A stretch of 24,715 bases of DNA from a virus (lineage: Duplodnaviria; Caudoviricetes). Location of the stretch: IMG/VR virus record IMGVR_UViG_3300014169_000024, positions 1-24,715 of that record, one strand, 5' to 3'. Position 1 is the first letter of the stretch. Each line of letters begins with the position of its first letter. Made by a program: the position numbers and the translations under genes. The notes under the pieces are model-generated. The model ran no database searches. It was not told the origin of the DNA and was given only the letters and a program-made list of their open reading frames with translations. Positions 7,175 to 23,749 of the stretch are shown in pieces.

Positions 7175-7231
7175 TCTCTTTAAATGTTATGGGTTAATTT
7201 TAGGGACTACCCCTCAACCCGGAGGTTGATT

Positions 7232-8290
7232 ATGGTTTCTAAAATAATCTCATTACTAATAACACTACAACTAACTACTTTAGTTGCACACGATAATTTT
7301 AACCAAATTAGCGCAAATGTTGGATCTAATGGCGTAGATTCATCTCATTTGAGATTTAACCATCAATCATATTTTTATATCCCTAACGGTGACGCTTTCA
7401 TATTGGATCTGGCGCATTCACTATGCCGAAATCATATCCAAAACGAAGCTGGACTATCATATCGTACATTCGCAGGAAAGGTAGGATTAGGGGCTAATAT
7501 CTATTATATGAACATGAACCATCCCGGAGCCTTCCTGCATCAATTAAGCCCTGGAATTGAGGCTATGTACAAGGATTTGCACGTAGCATATAATCTGTAT
7601 CTGCCAACTTCTCAGAATAAAAAGGCCAGAAATGGGATGATCTATCATAATCCGGTTTCGGAATTCGGCCTTAGATATATGATCAGGAAGGATATAGGCA
7701 TTGCATTGCTTCCATTCATTGATCATAAAGATAAAAGTTGGGGGCTTAATTCAAGATTAAATTATACACTTAATGATCGGTTTGAGTTTGGTATAGCCCC
7801 TTATTTCAAAAAAGAGGGAAAGGGATGTCTTTTCTCTTTCGGCATCAACTTTGGTGAATCTAAAGGCATGAAACAAGCGCTTAGGTCAAATTCCTTTAAG
7901 TATTCACTCAAACATTTTCAACCAAAAATTGCGAAAATATACGTTCAGATGCCGATCATTCCGATTGTTGTTCCTGATATAGAATATCCTGAGCTAAAGC
8001 TGATCGAAGAAGATGAGATCCTGCCTGAAAATGTTGAGCAAGAGGAATTAGAGGTAATTGCTCCGATCGAGAATCATTCCGTTCTATATCACGAAATGAT
8101 TGAGGAGATCAAAGAGCCTGAAAAAAAGCCTGAAACGTGGTTTAACTTCTTTCCATTCAGGGATATAAAAAGATCAGAGGTTAATCTTTCGGCTATGAGA
8201 AAGGATGATTTCTTTTTAGTAGCACCTTGGGGAAAGATATTAAATCCAAACGTACATATGCCCGGAGATTTGCCGGGCATGTTAGTCTAA
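7232..8290 (+). CDS. exported beta-barrel protein, inverse-autotransporter beta-domain-like
   Basis: Signal-peptide-like start (MVSKIISLLITLQLTTLVA); GLSYR..GLGANIYY..HQLSPGIEA..NLYLP strand pattern; GGAGG RBS. Confidence 0.6.
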   Translation: MVSKIISLLITLQLTTLVAHDNFNQISANVGSNGVDSSHLRFNHQSYFYIPNGDAFILDLAHSLCRNHIQNEAGLSYRTFAGKVGLGANIYYMNMNHPGAFLHQLSPGIEAMYKDLHVAYNLYLPTSQNKKARNGMIYHNPVSEFGLRYMIRKDIGIALLPFIDHKDKSWGLNSRLNYTLNDRFEFGIAPYFKKEGKGCLFSFGINFGESKGMKQALRSNSFKYSLKHFQPKIAKIYVQMPIIPIVVPDIEYPELKLIEEDEILPENVEQEELEVIAPIENHSVLYHEMIEEIKEPEKKPETWFNFFPFRDIKRSEVNLSAMRKDDFFLVAPWGKILNPNVHMPGDLPGMLV

Positions 8291-8342: not shown

Positions 8343-8408
8343 ATGATAATTCACGGCGATTGCTTAGATGAGATGAGAAAGATGGCAGATAACTCCATTT
8401 CTGGGATT
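8343..8408 (+). pseudogene. orphaned N-terminus of a DNA methyltransferase
   Basis: MIIHGDCLDEMRKMADNSISGI parallels IIQGDCLEVMRSYPDNYFSCV at 8894; similarity stops just before the DPPY motif. Confidence 0.75.
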
Positions 8409-8457
8409 GAATTCATACATAGAGGGTGTTACAATACATCTCCTAAAAAGAGGAGAT
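8407..8457 (+). promoter_or_regulatory. endonuclease promoter plus RBS-sequestering hairpin
   Basis: TTGAAT-17-(TG)TACAAT; ATCTCCT(8438)/AGGAGAT(8451) stem. Confidence 0.65.
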
Positions 8458-8463
8458 TTATTA

Positions 8464-8949
8464 ATGAAAATACCCGAACTTCAATTAGGCAAAGCTGGGG
8501 AGTATTTGGTTTGCGCCGATCTGATTTTAAAAGGATATATTGCCTTCCCTTCCGAACAGGGATTGTCTTATGACGTTGTTGTCGATGATAAAAACACTCT
8601 TATTCGGATTCAGGTCAAAACAACACAGACATACCGAGCTGTTGGCCAGAGAAAGAATTATTGTCCTTCCTATTTATTCAATGCGAGAAGATGCGGCAAA
8701 GGTGGTCGACAATCTTATGAAAACACAGATATCGACATCATGGCTTTTGTTTGTTTGGAAGATAATATTATTGGATATCTCCCAGTTCATGAAGTTCGTC
8801 AAACATTGCATTTTAGGGTTAAGAAATACCAATACAAAACAAAGAATTTGTGTGGCAGATATTTGGAAGATTTATCAATTGAGAGGGCAATAAATGGACT
8901 GCAAAATAATCCAAGGGGATTGTCTGGAGGTAATGCGCTCTTATCCTGA
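8464..8949 (+). CDS. PD-(D/E)XK homing endonuclease (I-Ssp6803I-like)
   Basis: GKAGEYLV..DL..KGY....YDVVVD....RIQVKT...Y...DIDIMAF. Confidence 0.8.
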   Translation: MKIPELQLGKAGEYLVCADLILKGYIAFPSEQGLSYDVVVDDKNTLIRIQVKTTQTYRAVGQRKNYCPSYLFNARRCGKGGRQSYENTDIDIMAFVCLEDNIIGYLPVHEVRQTLHFRVKKYQYKTKNLCGRYLEDLSIERAINGLQNNPRGLSGGNALLS

Positions 8950-11680: not shown

Positions 11681-13541
11681 ATGTCTATTACGACAACTGG
11701 CAATTTAGGCCCATTGATCTTGCAAAGCTTAGCTCCTGCAATGCTCTATGTTCCTACGCCAACAATGAACTATATTACTATTTGCGACAAAGTTTCGATG
11801 CCCTCCAATGGTGGGACGACTTGCCGCTTTATGAGGCCAAGAGCCTTACAACCGCCAACTATCCAGTTGGGAAATTCTGGGATTGACCCCCCAGCACAAG
11901 TGCCACAAAGAGACATCATTGATGCTCAAATGGCGTTTTTCGGTCGATTGCAAAATGCTGATAGTGAGTTACTTGCAGCATAACCTGTGCCGAAATAGTT
12001 GATGGTTTGCGACAGGATGTATCATCAACGAGCAAGTGATCCTAAAATAAAAATTTGACTTGTGGGATCACTGTTTTAATGTTGTAGGTTAGGATGATGA
12101 AGATTAGGACGAATATGAAGAGATTTAAGCTCCAAATAGCAACGATGACGAATAGCAATGTCTGCCTCGGGTACTTTTTGTATACCTTGTTTACCTTGTT
12201 TCGCTTGATTTCTATACGTGCCTCGAATCTCATACATTATTTCAAATTCTCTTCGTTTAATGATGGAATATGGAATCAAAAGAGTGCAGAACTCTCTGAT
12301 TCTATAGATAGGACAATACCATCTCCAAATGGGCCTTCGAATAACACCAGACTTTTTGTCGGTGGGAATGGATCGGATAATTCCGTCTATTCTTTCTTGA
12401 AGCCATGTAAGGAGTTTCATCTCGGTGTTTGTAACCGCGATGTATGTCTGATAGATTGGGCTTTTGCAATCTTTGGCTCTTGTAATGGGCCTAGATATAT
12501 GAATAGACCCTTCTCCATCCATAATTCCTGCGAGGTATCCAATCTCTTGCTCAGAGAGGGTTCTTCCGTAAAAATCAGTCATGATTTACCTATACTGCAT
12601 TATTGTGGAGCACTGTAACATATGCTACATATTACTGCAACCATTAAAGCTATAAATTCCGCTATATGCTGGAAACTCCTAAAGCTATCAGTACCAAAGT
12701 GTGAAAATCTGATAGATGAACAATGGACAATCAGCAGGGAAGGCCCAACTGGGAACCCTCAGAGACTACACGCGGAACACGAAAGTGAAGATATAGTCCG
12801 ATCTTATGTGAGAGCATAAGAGATTAGCAGAAATGCCTAATCCCCTCGCAAGAGGAGTAACAATAATGTCAAGATCAAGAGGGTGTTTTAGCTTGGGTAA
12901 GCGAACGCTTAGCCGTAGCTATGCGTCAGGCTGAGGACTTGATTTTAAGAGATTATATTATAAGCGCAGCTAGCGAAATCAATGCCGGCGGCGGAACTAA
13001 TGGTGACAATCCAACCAATCTCGGTGTATCCGACTTTAGCTTGGTTGCCACTACTTTAGATACCAATAATGCGTATAAATTTACGTCTGGTATCGAAGGA
13101 ATGGATCGCTTTGGTACAGGCCCAGTCCGTTCAGCATACTTTATGCTGTCGTCTACTGAGCTGCAAACCGATATGGATGGCTTAACTGGTTCAGGATTTT
13201 TGTCCCAGTGGAATTATCCTACTAACAGCTCTGCGCTTCCAAGTGAATTTGGATCGGTATTTAACATCCGAATTCTGACCTCATCTGAGGCTCCAGTAGC
13301 TCGCGGTGCGTCTGCTAATAATAACGATGTTTACTATAACACAGTTACAGGAAAGCAGGGCGTTACGCATATAAATCAAGATGGCTTCTCAATGAATCTG
13401 ATTTATAGAGATCCTTACTATTCTGGGATGTTAGCCCAGAATGCGACCTTGGCCGTTAAATTCGCCCAAGCGCAGGCTCTCACCCAAGACACTGCCGTGC
13501 GCAATCTCCTTTGCACACGCTTAAGCAATCTGGGGGTGTAA
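11681..13541 (+). CDS. major capsid protein, N4-gp56-like; spliced join(11681..11944,12012..12043,12869..13541), 322 aa
   Basis: Joined exons total 969 nt in one frame: ..QMAFFG|TGCIINEQVIL|QDQEGVLAWVSERLAVAMRQAEDLILRD..; also EFGSVFNIR and DPYYSG.LAQ motifs. Confidence 0.88.
11945..12011 (+). other. 67-nt coreless group I-like mini-intron
   Basis: Exon ends in U, insert ends in G; GCCGAAA(11989) pairs with TTTCGGT giving a U.G at the junction; CCTGT(11984) pairs with 3' exon ACAGG. Confidence 0.75.
12044..12868 (+). mobile_element. group I self-splicing intron (825 nt)
   Basis: P1 GTGATCCT/GGGATCAC with U.G; P3 TTCCGC/GCGGAA; P4 TGCTG/CAGCA; P7 GACTA/TAGTC in CAGAGACTACA and AAGATATAGTCC; GNRA-capped P8/P9; terminal G. 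Confidence 0.95.
12076..12582 (-). CDS. single-motif LAGLIDADG homing endonuclease, antisense within the intron
   Basis: YLAGIMDGEGSI motif; own promoter TTGCAG(12640)-17-TACAGT. Confidence 0.9.
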   Translation of the reverse strand: MTDFYGRTLSEQEIGYLAGIMDGEGSIHISRPITRAKDCKSPIYQTYIAVTNTEMKLLTWLQERIDGIIRSIPTDKKSGVIRRPIWRWYCPIYRIREFCTLLIPYSIIKRREFEIMYEIRGTYRNQAKQGKQGIQKVPEADIAIRHRCYLELKSLHIRPNLHHPNLQH

Positions 13542-14735: not shown

Positions 14736-15326
14736 ATGCCAAGATGGCCAGGTCGATCTTTGCAAATGAGGAAAATTTGTACTATTTGTAAAACAGAAAA
14801 AGATAGAAGTGAATTTCCTTCTCAACGAGGAAATTATGTAAAAGAAAAATGCAAGCCTTGTCATACTGCTTTCAATAGAGAAAGGCGAATTAAATGGAGA
14901 AAAGAAAATCCAAAAAAATATCAAGAGCATTTAGATAAAAAGTTTATAGAATATCGTCTAAAAAGAGGACTTGATCCAAAAAGGCAAAGAAAGCCCCATC
15001 GAAAGTTTCAAGGGAGTATAAATAATGGTGGCTATAAAGAATTTAGAGGCCAACGTTTTATGTCCCATCCGTGTTGTGACAAAAGAGGAAGAATTTTAGA
15101 ACATAGAATGGTTATGTATGACCATTTAAAGAGGGCTCCAATAGGAGAAGAAACGGTACATCATAAAAATGGAATCCGAACAGATAATCGGATTGAAAAT
15201 CTTGAGTTATGGACTAAAAATCATGGTCCTGGTCAACGTGTGGAAGATGTCTTAAACTTCTGCATTGAATTCCTGAAAAAATACGGATATGAAGTTATAA
15301 AGAAAGAAGATATACGTATAGATTGA
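14736..15326 (+). CDS. free-standing HNH homing endonuclease
   Basis: EHRMVM..HL.R...ETVHHKNGIRTDNRIENLELW; N-terminal CxxC...CxxC. Confidence 0.92.
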   Translation: MPRWPGRSLQMRKICTICKTEKDRSEFPSQRGNYVKEKCKPCHTAFNRERRIKWRKENPKKYQEHLDKKFIEYRLKRGLDPKRQRKPHRKFQGSINNGGYKEFRGQRFMSHPCCDKRGRILEHRMVMYDHLKRAPIGEETVHHKNGIRTDNRIENLELWTKNHGPGQRVEDVLNFCIEFLKKYGYEVIKKEDIRID

Positions 15327-18542: not shown

Positions 18543-21200
18543 ATGCCAGAGCAAATCTATATTGGTAACTTTGCAAAAGGTCTTACCACTAGTAGACTTC
18601 CATTTGTCATTGATAACGACGCTTTTCCAACGATGCTCAACTTCTATTCATGGAGAGGAAGAGCTAAAAGAAAAAGAGGGACGATCTTTCTTGGACAGTT
18701 GCAGATTCAGGTTCAATCTGTAGCGACTGCAACGCCTCCTGCTAATTGGCAAATAGGAACATTAGTCACCTTAAGCGGCGCTGGTGCTGGCTCTGGAAAT
18801 CTCATAACATCCGCGAGCGCTCCGAGTTCATCATCAATTACGCCTGGCTCTATTACGCTTTCAGATGGGACGAATACCTACACTGATACGACTCAAAATG
18901 GGATTCTTACAGGGACTCCAGCAGGATCAGGAACAATTAATTATGCGACTGGCGCATTCACAATTACAGGAGGTGCAGCAAATGGGGTGGTTACGGGAAC
19001 TTTTTCTTTCTTTCCTGGCACTCCTGTTATGGGTTTGCGTGATTATGCTTATAACTCAACTCCTTCTATACCACCGGTAAGGGCTCTATATCCCAATACG
19101 ATGGCTTTTGACATTAAAAAGGCTTATCAAATCTATCAAACCTCCAGCGCGAATACGTTCTACAACGTCACCTACTATAAATCTTCTTCAAATCCTTTCT
19201 CATGGAGCGGTCAGGACTACCAGCAATTTTGGATAACAAACTATCAAGGCGCATTATGGGCAACGAATAATGTTCCGGGTTTAAACAAAGCCACCGGAAC
19301 TTATGTTTCAGGAAGCGGAACAACTGCCATTGTAATGACATTAGCAGGTTCTGGCGTACCGACTCTTGTTGTTGGTGATTATCTTTGGTTCAATGAATGG
19401 GGATCGAATACCATTAATTTACAAACTGGCCAAGTGACAAATGTTAGCGGTAGCGATTACACTGTAACGTTTGCAAGCAGTGTAACGGCTTCCAGCACGG
19501 GTTTTGTTCAACTTTTAACTGCCAGCGTTCCGGGCCAAGACGGAATTAAATGGTATGATGGTGACCCAACTACGCATACAGGGCTACCTACGGCTACTGG
19601 GCTTGGTTGGGTTAACTTTTCTCCCCCATTAACCGCAGCAACGGTTTCAATAGATGATGAAACAGCTGCTAAGTATTATTTAGTAGGTGCATTGGCGATT
19701 CTTCCCTTTAAAGACAGGCTTTTATTCTTCAGTCCTTGGATTCAGACAAGCTCTGGCAATCCGATTCAATTGCAAGACGTGGTACTTTGGAGTTGGAATG
19801 GAACTCCATATTACTCATCTTTAACTCCGGCTGGGGAAACTAGTGATGTAAGAGCATATTATCAAGATCAAACAGGACTTGGAGGAAATCTTCCTGCGGG
19901 AACAGGACAGCCTATCGCTACTGTAACTAACAATGAAGACGTTTTGATTATCGGTTTTGGAGGATCTGGTAGAAAAACAAGATTTGTCTATACAGGAAAC
20001 GACTTGCAGCCCTTCTTATTCTATAATATTAACTCAGAACTTCCTTCGGATAGCACGTTTTCAGCAATTACATTAGATAAAGGGGCTTTAGATATTGGTG
20101 GATATGGCATAGCCATGACCGATCAACAATCGAGTCAACGTGTCGATTTAGACATTCCTGATTCAGTTTTCCAAATTCAAGGATTAAACAATGGAGCCCA
20201 AAGAGTTAATGCAGTCAGAGACTTTTATAGAGAATGGATCTACTTTAGCTATCCTGTCAATAACAGCCCTTGGAAATTTCCAACACAAACATTCCTATTT
20301 AATTATCGAGACAACACTTGGGGTGTTTTATATGAAAATTATACAGCTCATGGATCTTTCAGACCCATGATTAAAAAGTCGTGGTTGACTATAGGATATA
20401 GTTCCTGGAATAGCTGGAGAGAGCCATGGAATTCCGGAGCTAATTCGCCAAGCTTTCCAAGCGTTATAGCAGGAAATCCACAAGGTTATGTATTAACTAT
20501 TGGCCAAGGAAGGGGAGAGGCGACTTCAGGGACAATTATAGCAATTGCAAGTTCATCAGGAGGCACGCAAATCACGTCGATTAACCATTGCGTAAGAGTT
20601 GGAGATTATCTCTATTTCTCCGGACTTCTTGGTACAACGTCTATAAATGGTTTAATTGGACGAGTTATATCTACAGCAGATGCCAATACGTTTGTGGTAG
20701 ATTTACCGTTCCCATCAGGAACATATTTAGGTCTTGGCAAGTTCACACGTCTATCTCAGCCGCTCTTGCAAACCAAGCAATTTCCTGTATATTGGGATCA
20801 GGGTAGACAAACGCGTCTATCAACGCAAAAATACTTAATGGACTACACAGCAAATGCTCAAGTCACCGTCAATGTTTACCTTTCCCAAGATTCTGACGAT
20901 GTTTGGAATACTCCTCAGCCTCTTAGTAGTACTTCCGCTCTTGTATACAGTCAACTTATGTATACTTGTCCTGAATCTACTAACATTGGTCTTACACCTG
21001 CCAATACCAATCTTCAAATGCCTACAGCTGAAGGTCAACATCAAATCTGGCACAGATTTAACACAAGTTTAGTTGGAGACAGTATTCAAATTGGAATCAC
21101 CTTATCAGATAGTCAAATGCGTAATTTAACTTACGCAACTTCAGAAATTACTTTACACGGAATGCACTTGACCGTAGACAAATCTTCACATTTGGCCTGA
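18543..21200 (+). CDS. tail nozzle / DNA-stabilization protein (P22 gp10 / tubular B-like)
   Basis: 885 aa, beta-rich; GRAKRKRGT near the N-terminus and FKDRLLFF motif; follows the adaptor. Confidence 0.65.
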   Translation: MPEQIYIGNFAKGLTTSRLPFVIDNDAFPTMLNFYSWRGRAKRKRGTIFLGQLQIQVQSVATATPPANWQIGTLVTLSGAGAGSGNLITSASAPSSSSITPGSITLSDGTNTYTDTTQNGILTGTPAGSGTINYATGAFTITGGAANGVVTGTFSFFPGTPVMGLRDYAYNSTPSIPPVRALYPNTMAFDIKKAYQIYQTSSANTFYNVTYYKSSSNPFSWSGQDYQQFWITNYQGALWATNNVPGLNKATGTYVSGSGTTAIVMTLAGSGVPTLVVGDYLWFNEWGSNTINLQTGQVTNVSGSDYTVTFASSVTASSTGFVQLLTASVPGQDGIKWYDGDPTTHTGLPTATGLGWVNFSPPLTAATVSIDDETAAKYYLVGALAILPFKDRLLFFSPWIQTSSGNPIQLQDVVLWSWNGTPYYSSLTPAGETSDVRAYYQDQTGLGGNLPAGTGQPIATVTNNEDVLIIGFGGSGRKTRFVYTGNDLQPFLFYNINSELPSDSTFSAITLDKGALDIGGYGIAMTDQQSSQRVDLDIPDSVFQIQGLNNGAQRVNAVRDFYREWIYFSYPVNNSPWKFPTQTFLFNYRDNTWGVLYENYTAHGSFRPMIKKSWLTIGYSSWNSWREPWNSGANSPSFPSVIAGNPQGYVLTIGQGRGEATSGTIIAIASSSGGTQITSINHCVRVGDYLYFSGLLGTTSINGLIGRVISTADANTFVVDLPFPSGTYLGLGKFTRLSQPLLQTKQFPVYWDQGRQTRLSTQKYLMDYTANAQVTVNVYLSQDSDDVWNTPQPLSSTSALVYSQLMYTCPESTNIGLTPANTNLQMPTAEGQHQIWHRFNTSLVGDSIQIGITLSDSQMRNLTYATSEITLHGMHLTVDKSSHLA

Positions 21201-21204
21201 TAAA

Positions 21205-21314
21205 ACCTCACCACACCCTTCCAATCCGTTCCATACACCACCATGCCTGACCACACCGAGGCTCACCCCGCCAGACCAGGCCGATCCGTTCCGTATCCCA
21301 CCATACCGTTCCAC
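21205..21314 (-). ncRNA. 22-unit pentamer array (NN-GGH), putative gapped guide RNA
   Basis: Strict 5-nt phase; 19/22 units carry GG at positions 3-4; variable NN decodes to codons 21063-21107 of the adjacent gene. Confidence 0.8.
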
Positions 21315-21318
21315 TAAT

Positions 21319-21378
21319 CTACAATACCTCAAATTTGACAACTTGAAATCTTCCAAATGTTGGCCTAAAATCTCCTAT
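21319..21378 (-). pseudogene. 3' relic of a RAMP/Cas7-like protein gene
   Basis: IGDFRPTFGRFQVVKFEVL* Gly-loop-like ending; in-frame TAA immediately upstream. Confidence 0.65.
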
Positions 21379-21511
21379 TTACTCTATCTGAAAACATAGG
21401 GACTTTTCCTACTTCCATACAATATCGGGCTTTGTCTGAGAAAAACTGCATCGAGTTGTGAATTAAATTTTGAATGTCTTCTCTAGAAAAAATATATCTT
21501 TTGGCCACTGT

Positions 21512-21739
21512 CTATATATCCTTTTTTTTAATTTCTAATAGTTGCGTATGAAAGTCTTTGATTTCATCATGAATTGCATGATTAAAGTTCACACTTTCCA
21601 TTCTAATTTCCCAGATTAGATCTCTATGAGCCCTCAACATGCTATCCATATGACGAATATCTGTACGCGATTCCGTACGGTTCCATATAAATAAACCGAA
21701 GACACCTAAGAAAAATATTATAAACTGAACCCATTCCAT
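21512..21739 (-). CDS. small membrane-anchored coiled-coil protein
   Basis: N-terminal TM, SRTDIR and KDFH motifs. Confidence 0.7.
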   Translation of the reverse strand: MEWVQFIIFFLGVFGLFIWNRTESRTDIRHMDSMLRAHRDLIWEIRMESVNFNHAIHDEIKDFHTQLLEIKKKDI

Positions 21740-21788: not shown

Positions 21789-22019
21789 ATGGGAAAAACC
21801 GACTGGAACGATGCAACAAAGGGCCATCCTACTGGCGCAAGACTGCTCGTAGTTAAGCATTATTTAGATCAAGAATTTGATATGGAACAGGGAGGCTACC
21901 GCGGCCCGTGGTTCAAAACCCCAAGCATGATTGTCATTGATATCTCGTTCAGAGAGCATAGCTGGGAAGGCGGAGGAATTGTGACGCACTGGATGGAGAT
22001 ACCGGAGATGCCGAAATGA
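21789..22019 (+). CDS. DUF551-like small protein
   Basis: C-terminal VTHWMEIPEMPK. Confidence 0.65.
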   Translation: MGKTDWNDATKGHPTGARLLVVKHYLDQEFDMEQGGYRGPWFKTPSMIVIDISFREHSWEGGGIVTHWMEIPEMPK

Positions 22020-22581: not shown

Positions 22582-22830
22582 CTAAGTCAGCTTCTTTTTT
22601 AATGAAAAAGTGTCAAAAGGATTGAAATTTCTTCTCATGGCATCTTTCAAGTCTTTTTTCTTATCAAACTCATGGTGCGTTCGTATTGATGCCAGATAAA
22701 TCAGTCTTGCTTTATTCAATGCAATCAGTTCCTTGTGTAACTTTTCAATTTCTTCCTTTTTTTCATCCATTATTGACTGAATTTCAATCAAAGTCTCTTC
22801 GGAAAAGGCTTGGTTATCCATTATTGACAC
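22582..22830 (-). CDS. coiled-coil hypothetical protein
   Basis: Overlaps the groES end. Confidence 0.55.
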   Translation of the reverse strand: MSIMDNQAFSEETLIEIQSIMDEKKEEIEKLHKELIALNKARLIYLASIRTHHEFDKKKDLKDAMRRNFNPFDTFSLKKKLT

Positions 22831-23078
22831 ACAATCGCCAGAATCTGATCTTCGTAAATAACAAGATACTTCTCTCCCTTTTCCTCAATTGGAGTTCCTG
22901 TATGAGGCGGAAGAATAACGATATCATCTTTAAGTAGATTGGAATCCACATCGCTGCCTTTTGCAATTACAGATGCCCTAAAATATTTTTTCTCGTTAAC
23001 TTCAATGATAAGCTTTTTTTCGTCTTTTACTTCTTCGATTACCTTGACGACAACTCGTTTACCGACAGCTTTTAGCAT
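22821..23078 (-). CDS. groES: GroES-like co-chaperonin
   Basis: LKAVGKRVVVK...VIAKG...DIVI...GT.IE..GEKYLVIYEDQILAIV. Confidence 0.85.
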   Translation of the reverse strand: MLKAVGKRVVVKVIEEVKDEKKLIIEVNEKKYFRASVIAKGSDVDSNLLKDDIVILPPHTGTPIEEKGEKYLVIYEDQILAIVCQ

Positions 23079-23197: not shown

Positions 23198-23749
23198 CTA
23201 TTTCCTTTCAAAGTCAATGAGGTTATAAAGATCGTTTCTGAGTTTTCCAATATCCTCGATGATCTTGTTTAAGGAATCAAGTAGTCCTTCAAGTTTTGGG
23301 ACAGCAAAACTTAATCCGACTTTTTGCAACAAAATAGAAATTTCGTCCAATGTATGTATTCCAAAATTTCTCATACGAAACAAAGAATCATAAGTATATA
23401 AAGACACATCTTTTAAATTCTTTGCTCCCAGTTTGATTAGACAATTAATCGCTCTTCTGGATAAAGGCAGTTGTGATATTGGTAATTGGGTAATTTTTTC
23501 TACATCTCCATATAGAAGAAATTTATTAATCTGCTCAATAGCATAAACATAACGCATTCTTACAGATTGCCCTGTAATGTTGTGCATTTCTCCTATTTCT
23601 TTAAAAGTTTTACATTCATTTAATTTTAGATATAAAAAATATATATCACGATCTTTAAGATGAGGAACCTTGGTCAGATCACCTTGTTTTATGAATTCTA
23701 AGGTTTCTTTTGTAATTTTGAAATGGTTATAGGGTTCTTTCATAGGCAT
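23198..23749 (-). CDS. sigma region-4-like HTH fused to an RNA polymerase alpha-CTD-like domain
   Basis: KTFKEIGEMHNITGQSVR HTH; ISQLPLSRRAINCL...RMRNFGIHTLDEI...GLSF. Confidence 0.8.
   Translation of the reverse strand: MPMKEPYNHFKITKETLEFIKQGDLTKVPHLKDRDIYFLYLKLNECKTFKEIGEMHNITGQSVRMRYVYAIEQINKFLLYGDVEKITQLPISQLPLSRRAINCLIKLGAKNLKDVSLYTYDSLFRMRNFGIHTLDEISILLQKVGLSFAVPKLEGLLDSLNKIIEDIGKLRNDLYNLIDFERK

Follow-up and report, generated by a model that had tools for sequence, protein, structure and literature searches.

VIPR systems, which consist of a Vipr protein of the RAMP family and a guide RNA (vrRNA) of GGY/NN repeats, have been described for phage SUSP1 and a P. fulva prophage (10.64898/2026.04.26.720920,.720927). 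One Vipr subunit is used per triplet, and each NN pairs with two target bases while one base is skipped (10.64898/2026.04.26.720920). According to the same work, the filament blocks transcription on either strand, requires no protospacer-adjacent motif and apparently pairs from the 3' end (10.64898/2026.04.26.720920,.720927). The SUSP1 Vipr pocket is reported to exclude GGA, and a conserved structured 3' tail has been described for SUSP1/type II arrays. Solo vrRNAs are known from F5 satellites and VIPR-null SUSP1-family phages, and the published ones are directed, in enterobacterial phages, against REP elements, satellites, vipr or other vrRNAs (10.64898/2026.10.15.759431). Four reports already cover the VIPR code and its skipping of the wobble base, guides that are left solo once vipr has been deleted, guides against vipr, and self scores that are the lower ones (10.64898/2026.04.26.720920,.720927, 10.64898/2026.10.15.759431, 10.64898/2026.10.21.760802). 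Here we describe a pentamer array beside a tail nozzle gene in virus DNA of 24,715 nucleotides (Duplodnaviria; Caudoviricetes; IMG/VR record IMGVR_UViG_3300014169_000024), hereafter the window, which is the whole record (G000), a linear contig estimated to be 62% complete with replication, capsid and tail genes. The array is almost certainly a VIPR guide for a site in this nozzle gene family. We consider it likely that the guide acts with Vipr supplied from elsewhere, so that the nozzle allele of rival phages is silenced and the phage's own mismatched copy is spared.

The locus resembles the SUSP1 and P. fulva systems in its pentamer repeats, in the one-base skip at the wobble position, in targets found in other phages, in having no self match of at least 80% and in the Cas7-like fold of Vipr in an intact relative (L089). 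Because the array spells the nozzle site of related phages and is placed behind a vipr stump, it is likely a VIPR guide RNA; because full-length vipr is absent from the locus, it is not classed as a complete VIPR system. By its testable features, therefore, the array is a predicted VIPR guide and not a complete system on this contig. The main features are as follows.

21205..21314, minus strand: VIPR-type guide (vrRNA) array of 22 NN+GGH pentamers (H, A, C or T), predicted from sequence
21215..21289, minus strand: array units 6-20, the nozzle-site part, in coding-strand sense with the skipped base at codon position 3
21290..21314, minus strand: array units 1-5, without a nozzle-site match, possibly a leader or the remains of another guide
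18543..21200, plus strand: 885-residue podovirus tail nozzle gene (T7 gp12 / P22 gp10 / SU10-like), from a structure model
21063..21107, plus strand: the phage's own version of the target site (codons 841-855), with mismatches at units 7, 8, 9, 12, 13 and 20
21319..21378, minus strand: vipr 3' stump of 19 codons and a stop, which includes the G-loop motif GDFRPTFGRF and is separated from the array by 4 bases

On the minus strand from 21314 to 21205, all 22 pentamers are in phase, and the list of NN dinucleotides given by an earlier first-pass annotation, made from the letters alone, was exact. Its description of every unit as NN followed by GGA, GGC or GGT holds for the 19 of 22 units with GG at positions 3-4 (GGT 10, GGA 6, GGC 3; in other terms GGY 13, GGA 6, other 3) and fails for units 4, 11 and 16, which have GAT, GCC and TGT. 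Native SUSP1 arrays also contain TGT, GAT, AGT and one GGA. In-phase GG reaches 10/12 in the array, compared with at most 5/12 in any other tract of the whole window, and an Rfam search of the array gave no match at E<=1. The T-run end of the array is 4 bases from the nozzle stop, and several arrays of the same subtype likewise end in A/T runs. A 56-residue open reading frame (ORF) across the array (21186-21356, minus) was set aside as an incidental frame.

The array spells the alleles of rival phages, and the neighbouring gene, of which the first-pass annotation had taken it to be a copy, is among the worst matches. A pattern made from units 10-19 matched five stretches in viral contigs, all of them (5/5) inside homologous nozzle genes, just where the annotation had expected such matches to fall. 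By protein searches the target set was enlarged to 68 distinct homologous alleles; 93 sites were collapsed to 69 distinct alleles (70 including L089), L012 being included solely through the guide pattern, and L050 (identical to the window at the query), L015 (a copy of the window), L014 (SUSP1) and duplicate alleles were left out before counting. Against units 6-20, these 68 alleles match at 7-13 of 15 NN, with a best fit of 13/15 NN and 28/30 bases, and 11 of the 68 reach the published 80% cut-off (at least 12/15), a level that applies to units 6-20, the best over all 22 units being 14/22. Among metagenome sequences, the best targets are L061, L074 and L088. When compared with the resident allele, the NN score is above the resident's 9 in 46 alleles, equal in 12 and below in 10, and the base score is higher than its 21/30 in 62 of 68, in agreement with the earlier proposal that homologues should fit better than the resident. 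For units 10-20, a perfect 11/11 is found in 6 of 69 alleles, all of which were also retrieved by protein searches, versus 8/11 for the resident.

The spacing of the pairing was examined on 1.2 Mb of loci. With a one-base skip the best fit is 28/30 bases; no other skip tried (0, 2 or 3) exceeds 21, and the highest score among 100 shuffles is 22. The gapped reading in which the third base is skipped, as originally put forward, is thus the only one that fits. The base passed over is in the wobble position, which has the lowest conservation within the codon, with majority identities across the site of 0.79, 0.91 and 0.49 at codon positions 1, 2 and 3, respectively.

The label of tail gene given earlier to the neighbour was upheld by a model of its 885-residue protein (predicted local distance difference test, pLDDT, 81.7), which matches the podovirus nozzles of cyanophage A4, SU10, T7 gp12 and P22 gp10 with a best E of 5e-19. 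A sequence search gave a weak match to the VP1 nozzle (E 0.14), no family was found in Pfam and PHROGs, and an SU10 adaptor-like gene is present upstream. The resident allele, 97 bases from the guide, matches units 6-20 at 9/15 NN and 21/30 bases, and its six consecutive matches are units 14-19; the nine dinucleotides and the run of six at 21063-21107 were recounted and found to be as first reported. This is the best self match on the contig (62% of the genome), so that no self target of at least 80% is seen. The shuffled-NN comparison that had been suggested gave a divided answer: the match at the DNA level is weak, since 232 of 2000 shuffled arrays have at least 9 matches at some place in the window (p ~0.12) and 34 of 1000 have a run of 6, while the match at the amino-acid level stands, with 13 compatible units where none of 1000 shuffles had more than 11. 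The amino-acid-level match to the nozzle gene is therefore not due to chance. Five of the six resident mismatches in units 6-20 are a Ser or Leu codon-class switch or an Ile/Val exchange, and the sixth is Leu versus Val.

The link to VIPR, which the first-pass annotation had offered as one to be checked, holds, and the stump of vipr at 21319-21378 is a feature that it had missed. A profile built from 83 SUSP1 Vipr homologues (A1) has one match on the contig, directly upstream of the array (E 9.4e-4), and a profile of the nearer subtype (A5) aligns with the stump over model positions 184-201 of 202 (E 1.6e-6). The motif GDFRPTFGRF is found in 21 of 120 homologues of the Vipr of record G009. An in-frame TAA (21381-21379) stands directly upstream of the stump, and no stump homology was found further upstream in the window in any frame. 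In 60 of 79 subtype loci, an array begins between 25 bases before and 150 bases after the vipr stop (median ~+1), and the gap here is 4. In the relative L089 the layout at this place is intact, with nozzle end, array and full vipr on the minus strand, and the model of its Vipr folds like Cas7/Csm3 (pLDDT 84.7, best E 3.5e-7). The Vipr of G009 aligns to a near-copy of SUSP1 Vipr (E 5e-11); the subtype, with 6758 homologues, is 26% identical to SUSP1, and Pfam has no family for either of the two Vipr proteins searched. Profile searches of the 24.7 kb contig, from a record 62% complete, found the stump and no full-length vipr. Full vipr genes are present in 4 of 25 nozzle-family viral records, which are possible protein donors; G026 was excluded from this count because it had been found through Vipr.

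The array recurs in other sequencing runs. In run X8 (study P8), one contig spans 20904-21379 with 28 differences in 476 bases (~6%) and leaves the window sequence at 21379; the 30 letters beyond, read by hand, continue the Vipr consensus in frame, with the residues A-G-R-L-N-G before I-G-D. Since only that much of the gene is seen, an intact vipr in X8 is inferred. A lake contig independent of the window thus bears the same array and a continuing vipr frame. Run X6 (P6) has the same array variant as X8, with five listed array differences from the window; run X5 (P5) covers 21222-21372 with 2 differences, run X2 (P2) covers 20975-21229, and a search for the same guide core in other viral contigs gave 0 matches. 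Four of the five X6/X8 differences are in scaffold letters and one is in the NN of unit 3, so that within units 6-20 differences occur in 0 of 30 NN letters versus 4 of 45 scaffold letters (p 0.12; listed differences only being mappable). At its own nozzle site, this relative has four wobble changes and one first-position change, and all six mismatched units are kept.

The resident allele was also compared with its relatives by a scan that ignores the guide (47-sequence alignment, 259 equally conserved windows of 15 codons, codon positions 1+2). The resident is most atypical at the guide footprint (codons 841-855), where 8 of the 10 top windows start (841-848). Against L002 and L001, its nearest relatives, silent changes at positions 1 and 2 amount to 5 per 15 codons, where the means are 0.7-0.9 (0.6% and 1.1% of windows). 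This atypical footprint, found without the guide, suggests self-avoidance, and we regard it as quite probable that the own allele is under such selection. The signal would fit either recoding after the guide was gained or selection of a guide that happened to miss self.

The mechanism that we propose is as follows. The guide RNA would be made from the minus strand and would anneal to the template strand of the rival nozzle gene close to its 3' end, and the bound filament would then act as a roadblock for this gene and the virion genes behind it. Self would be protected by the mismatches at unit 20, units 12-13 and units 7-9, the resident having presumably escaped through Ser TCN/AGY and Leu CTN/TTR class switches plus two Ile/Val changes. 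As only a stump of vipr is left on the contig, Vipr would have to be supplied by a Vipr-positive relative in the same infection or by a second vipr gene in the part of the genome that was not assembled; failing this, the guide is a relic. On balance, we favor the view that the putative guide still works in this genome. It is conceivable, though we think it doubtful, that guide, recoded own allele and vipr form a linked poison-and-antidote cassette, which in mixed infections would shut down or exclude siblings with the common allele and thereby drive its own spread.

Several observations weigh against the main explanation, that of a VIPR guide acting on rival alleles. The exact 15-unit target has 0 matches in metagenome contigs, a pattern requiring CT at unit 9 has 0 matches in viral contigs, unit 9 fits 0 of 68 alleles, and no allele fits all 15 units; a pattern of units 9-17 also gave 0 matches in viral contigs. 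Units 1-5 and 21-22 do not fit the nozzle site, units 1-5 matching 0 of 68 alleles among the commonest dinucleotides listed. Perfect units 10-20 are only weakly enriched in Vipr-positive relatives (2/4 versus 1/18, p 0.07). GGA occupies 6 of 22 scaffolds here and 257 of 4355 triplets in this Vipr subtype. There is no promoter-like site on the minus strand within 400 bases of the array and no terminator, and the array tail has no stable fold (z 0.27). Six consecutive units still match the resident allele close to the 3' end, from which pairing reportedly starts. The self-avoidance signal is modest (window rank ~0.04), with overlapping windows and a Ser/Leu-rich site, and the excess of silent changes against L003 is not significant (p ~0.10). 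The 11 runs listed include none that holds RNA and thus give no evidence on expression either way. Concerning the array's first units, units 1-4 (21295-21314, minus) have 19 of 20 letters in common with an array of L047 (~8830-8849, plus), a distant phage with the same Vipr subtype as the stump, and this is the sole viral hit of that pattern; the likeness reflects a shared leader or chance.

Among the other explanations, the best surviving one is that the array is a relic, i.e., the former guide of an intact VIPR cassette that is unused here after most of vipr was lost. We consider this rather unlikely. Only 19 vipr codons are left, the absence of a nearby minus-strand promoter-like site noted above would agree with disuse, and the intact guide letters could mean that the loss was recent, given the ~6% divergence (28/476 bases) from the X8 relative. 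On the other side, solo guides have been shown in E. coli to function with the Vipr of a different element (10.64898/2026.10.15.759431), and Vipr-positive relatives exist. Moreover, G012 has two vipr genes and the array of G009 is far from its vipr, so that the missing 38% of the genome may provide Vipr in cis.

The vicinity of guide and target (97 bases) raises the idea of RNA-guided allele exclusion or homing, in which guide, resistant allele and vipr would be a linked cassette that blocks or damages the rival allele and is over-inherited in the manner of the free-standing homing endonucleases of T4. The block that contains the array is missing in the near relatives L001 and L003, VIPR cassettes are found in or near the same interval in L089, L062, L020 and L053, and free-standing endonucleases of T4 target neighboring genes and exclude rival markers (PMC2988022). 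However, no nuclease gene adjoins the array, none of the arrays in L089, L062, L020 and L053 has a match in a nozzle gene, and a clear match to the own flank occurs in only 1 of 240 other subtype arrays; this explanation is accordingly held to be improbable.

The last figure comes from 241 arrays in 78 of 82 subtype loci, compared with up to 7 kb on each side, where a clear own-flank amino-acid match was found in the window and in L197 only. That guides are copied from the neighboring gene as a rule was thus rejected (1/240 besides the window), and no other array matched when compared with nozzle genes. Because such matches are so rare, adjacency appears to be an occasional linkage of a guide with a resistant allele and not a general route of making guides. 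In L197, the array (7604-7683, plus) directly behind an intact vipr spells the coding sequence of the vipr G-loop of rivals in antisense and matches 10/10 in 6 of 68 alleles versus 8/10 in self, through Arg AGA/CGN switches; on its letters, it is a predicted anti-VIPR guide beside its own mismatched target.

Further arrays were observed in the course of this survey. L010 (4757-4971, plus; record G009) is a 43-unit array far from the vipr of its record, and its units 5-16 fit an ELLNQENEVLD reading in L040/L041 with a score of 18 versus shuffle maxima of 13-14 (3 shuffles); we take the L040/L041 protein to be capsid-like. Several Vipr types with different scaffolds occur in one phage family, at L122 (G019), L020/L121 (G013), L053 and L016/L018 (G012): seven arrays are of the NN-GGC form, others are NN-GA(N), and NN-GGA arrays occur together with two vipr genes in a single genome; no targets of these arrays were found among the collected loci. 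L098 (10029-9965, minus) has a 13-unit array and no vipr match in the available locus, and is possibly another solo guide.

Since one can ask whether the phage gene is in fact intact, an assembly artefact behind the vipr truncation has to be weighed, and we judge it very improbable. The two covering contigs of run X1 overlap by just 22 bases (21378-21399), at the break, and neither bridges it by a 31-letter rule; the junction is seen in no independent run. Against an artefact, one X1 contig extends 20 bases past the break with zero differences, and the other starts inside the overlap, also with zero differences. As X1 is possibly the source of the window, its contigs are not independent evidence on the junction.

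That the guide dampens the phage's own nozzle operon would explain the adjacency and the six consecutive matches to the own gene. Such self-regulation appears highly improbable: the self match of 60% falls short of the 80% level applied to natural targets, a better fit is seen in 62 of 68 homologues, and the X6/X8 relative retains the same six mismatched units. A chance origin from a low-complexity GG-rich repeat, for which the DNA-level self match (p ~0.12) could be cited, is negligible, being refuted by the skip, shuffle and stump results, by the 5/5 matches of the units 10-19 pattern in nozzle genes and by the recurrence of the array in X6/X8.

The nozzle gene and the next conserved gene are separated by ~815 bases, which contain the array, the vipr stump and two small genes, while in L001 and L003 these two genes directly adjoin each other. 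The two small genes are as follows.

21512..21739, minus strand: 75-residue small membrane protein, possibly holin-like, with 194 homologues, where the 5' part of vipr would lie
21789..22019, plus strand: 76-residue DUF551-like gene (Pfam E 0.004, below the cut-off) at the end of the ~815-base block

The 75-residue protein has an Atlas feature score of 0.93 to an automatically named holin cluster without a common Pfam family, which is a lead only. A co-chaperonin GroES gene (22821-23078, minus) and a transcription-regulator-like gene (23198-23749, minus) run against the direction of the virion operon; a GroES-like ORF also lies beside the VIPR cassette of L020. The capsid gene is apparently split (11681-11983 and 12921-13541) around a minus-strand LAGLIDADG-like ORF (12076-12582, Pfam E 0.013), and the region of 11681-13541 may contain an intron. 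The window also has a weak inverse-autotransporter-beta-like gene (7184-8290), a PD-(D/E)XK endonuclease ahead of a DNA methylase (8407-8949, 12 kb from the array) and a free-standing HNH gene among virion genes (14736-15326, 6 kb from the array). No isolated relative was matched among 50,697 phage records, and genome matches were limited to two bins.

The predicted guide extends the VIPR code to a distant and very abundant Vipr subtype with a decoded natural target, and provides a natural comparison of two phages with one guide, which follows a vipr stump in the first and a continuing vipr frame in the second. With 69 natural alleles and the Ser/Leu-switched resident, mismatch tolerance, self-avoidance and the use of borrowed Vipr can be directly tested. 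Codon-class switches at first and second positions would be a silent escape route that wobble skipping leaves open. If the cassette idea were true, it would be an RNA-guided counterpart of T4 marker exclusion, and the phage of the window would be a cheater without the protein, turning the protein of a Vipr-positive rival against that rival.

Compared with the SUSP1 and P. fulva systems, the present array has 22 units instead of 9-16, a GGA-rich scaffold and no structured tail found; its vipr is a stump of a subtype 26% identical to SUSP1, no vap is seen, and the predicted target belongs to the structural genes of sibling phages, the phage's own homologue being 97 bases away from the guide. As in the solo vrRNAs, the guide is apparently kept after vipr loss, would need another element's Vipr and has a self score lower than the rival score; unlike them, it would target a tail-nozzle allele in an uncultured podovirus family and retains a G-loop stump. 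In the parts of the VIPR literature available to us, we found no guide beside its own mismatched structural-gene allele, and the target tables could hold such cases. The free-standing homing endonucleases of T4 (seg/mob), known for intronless homing and marker exclusion (PMC2988022), differ in that recognition here would be by RNA and the cassette has no nuclease, while they share with the present locus the placing of an element beside a gene whose rival allele it recognizes.

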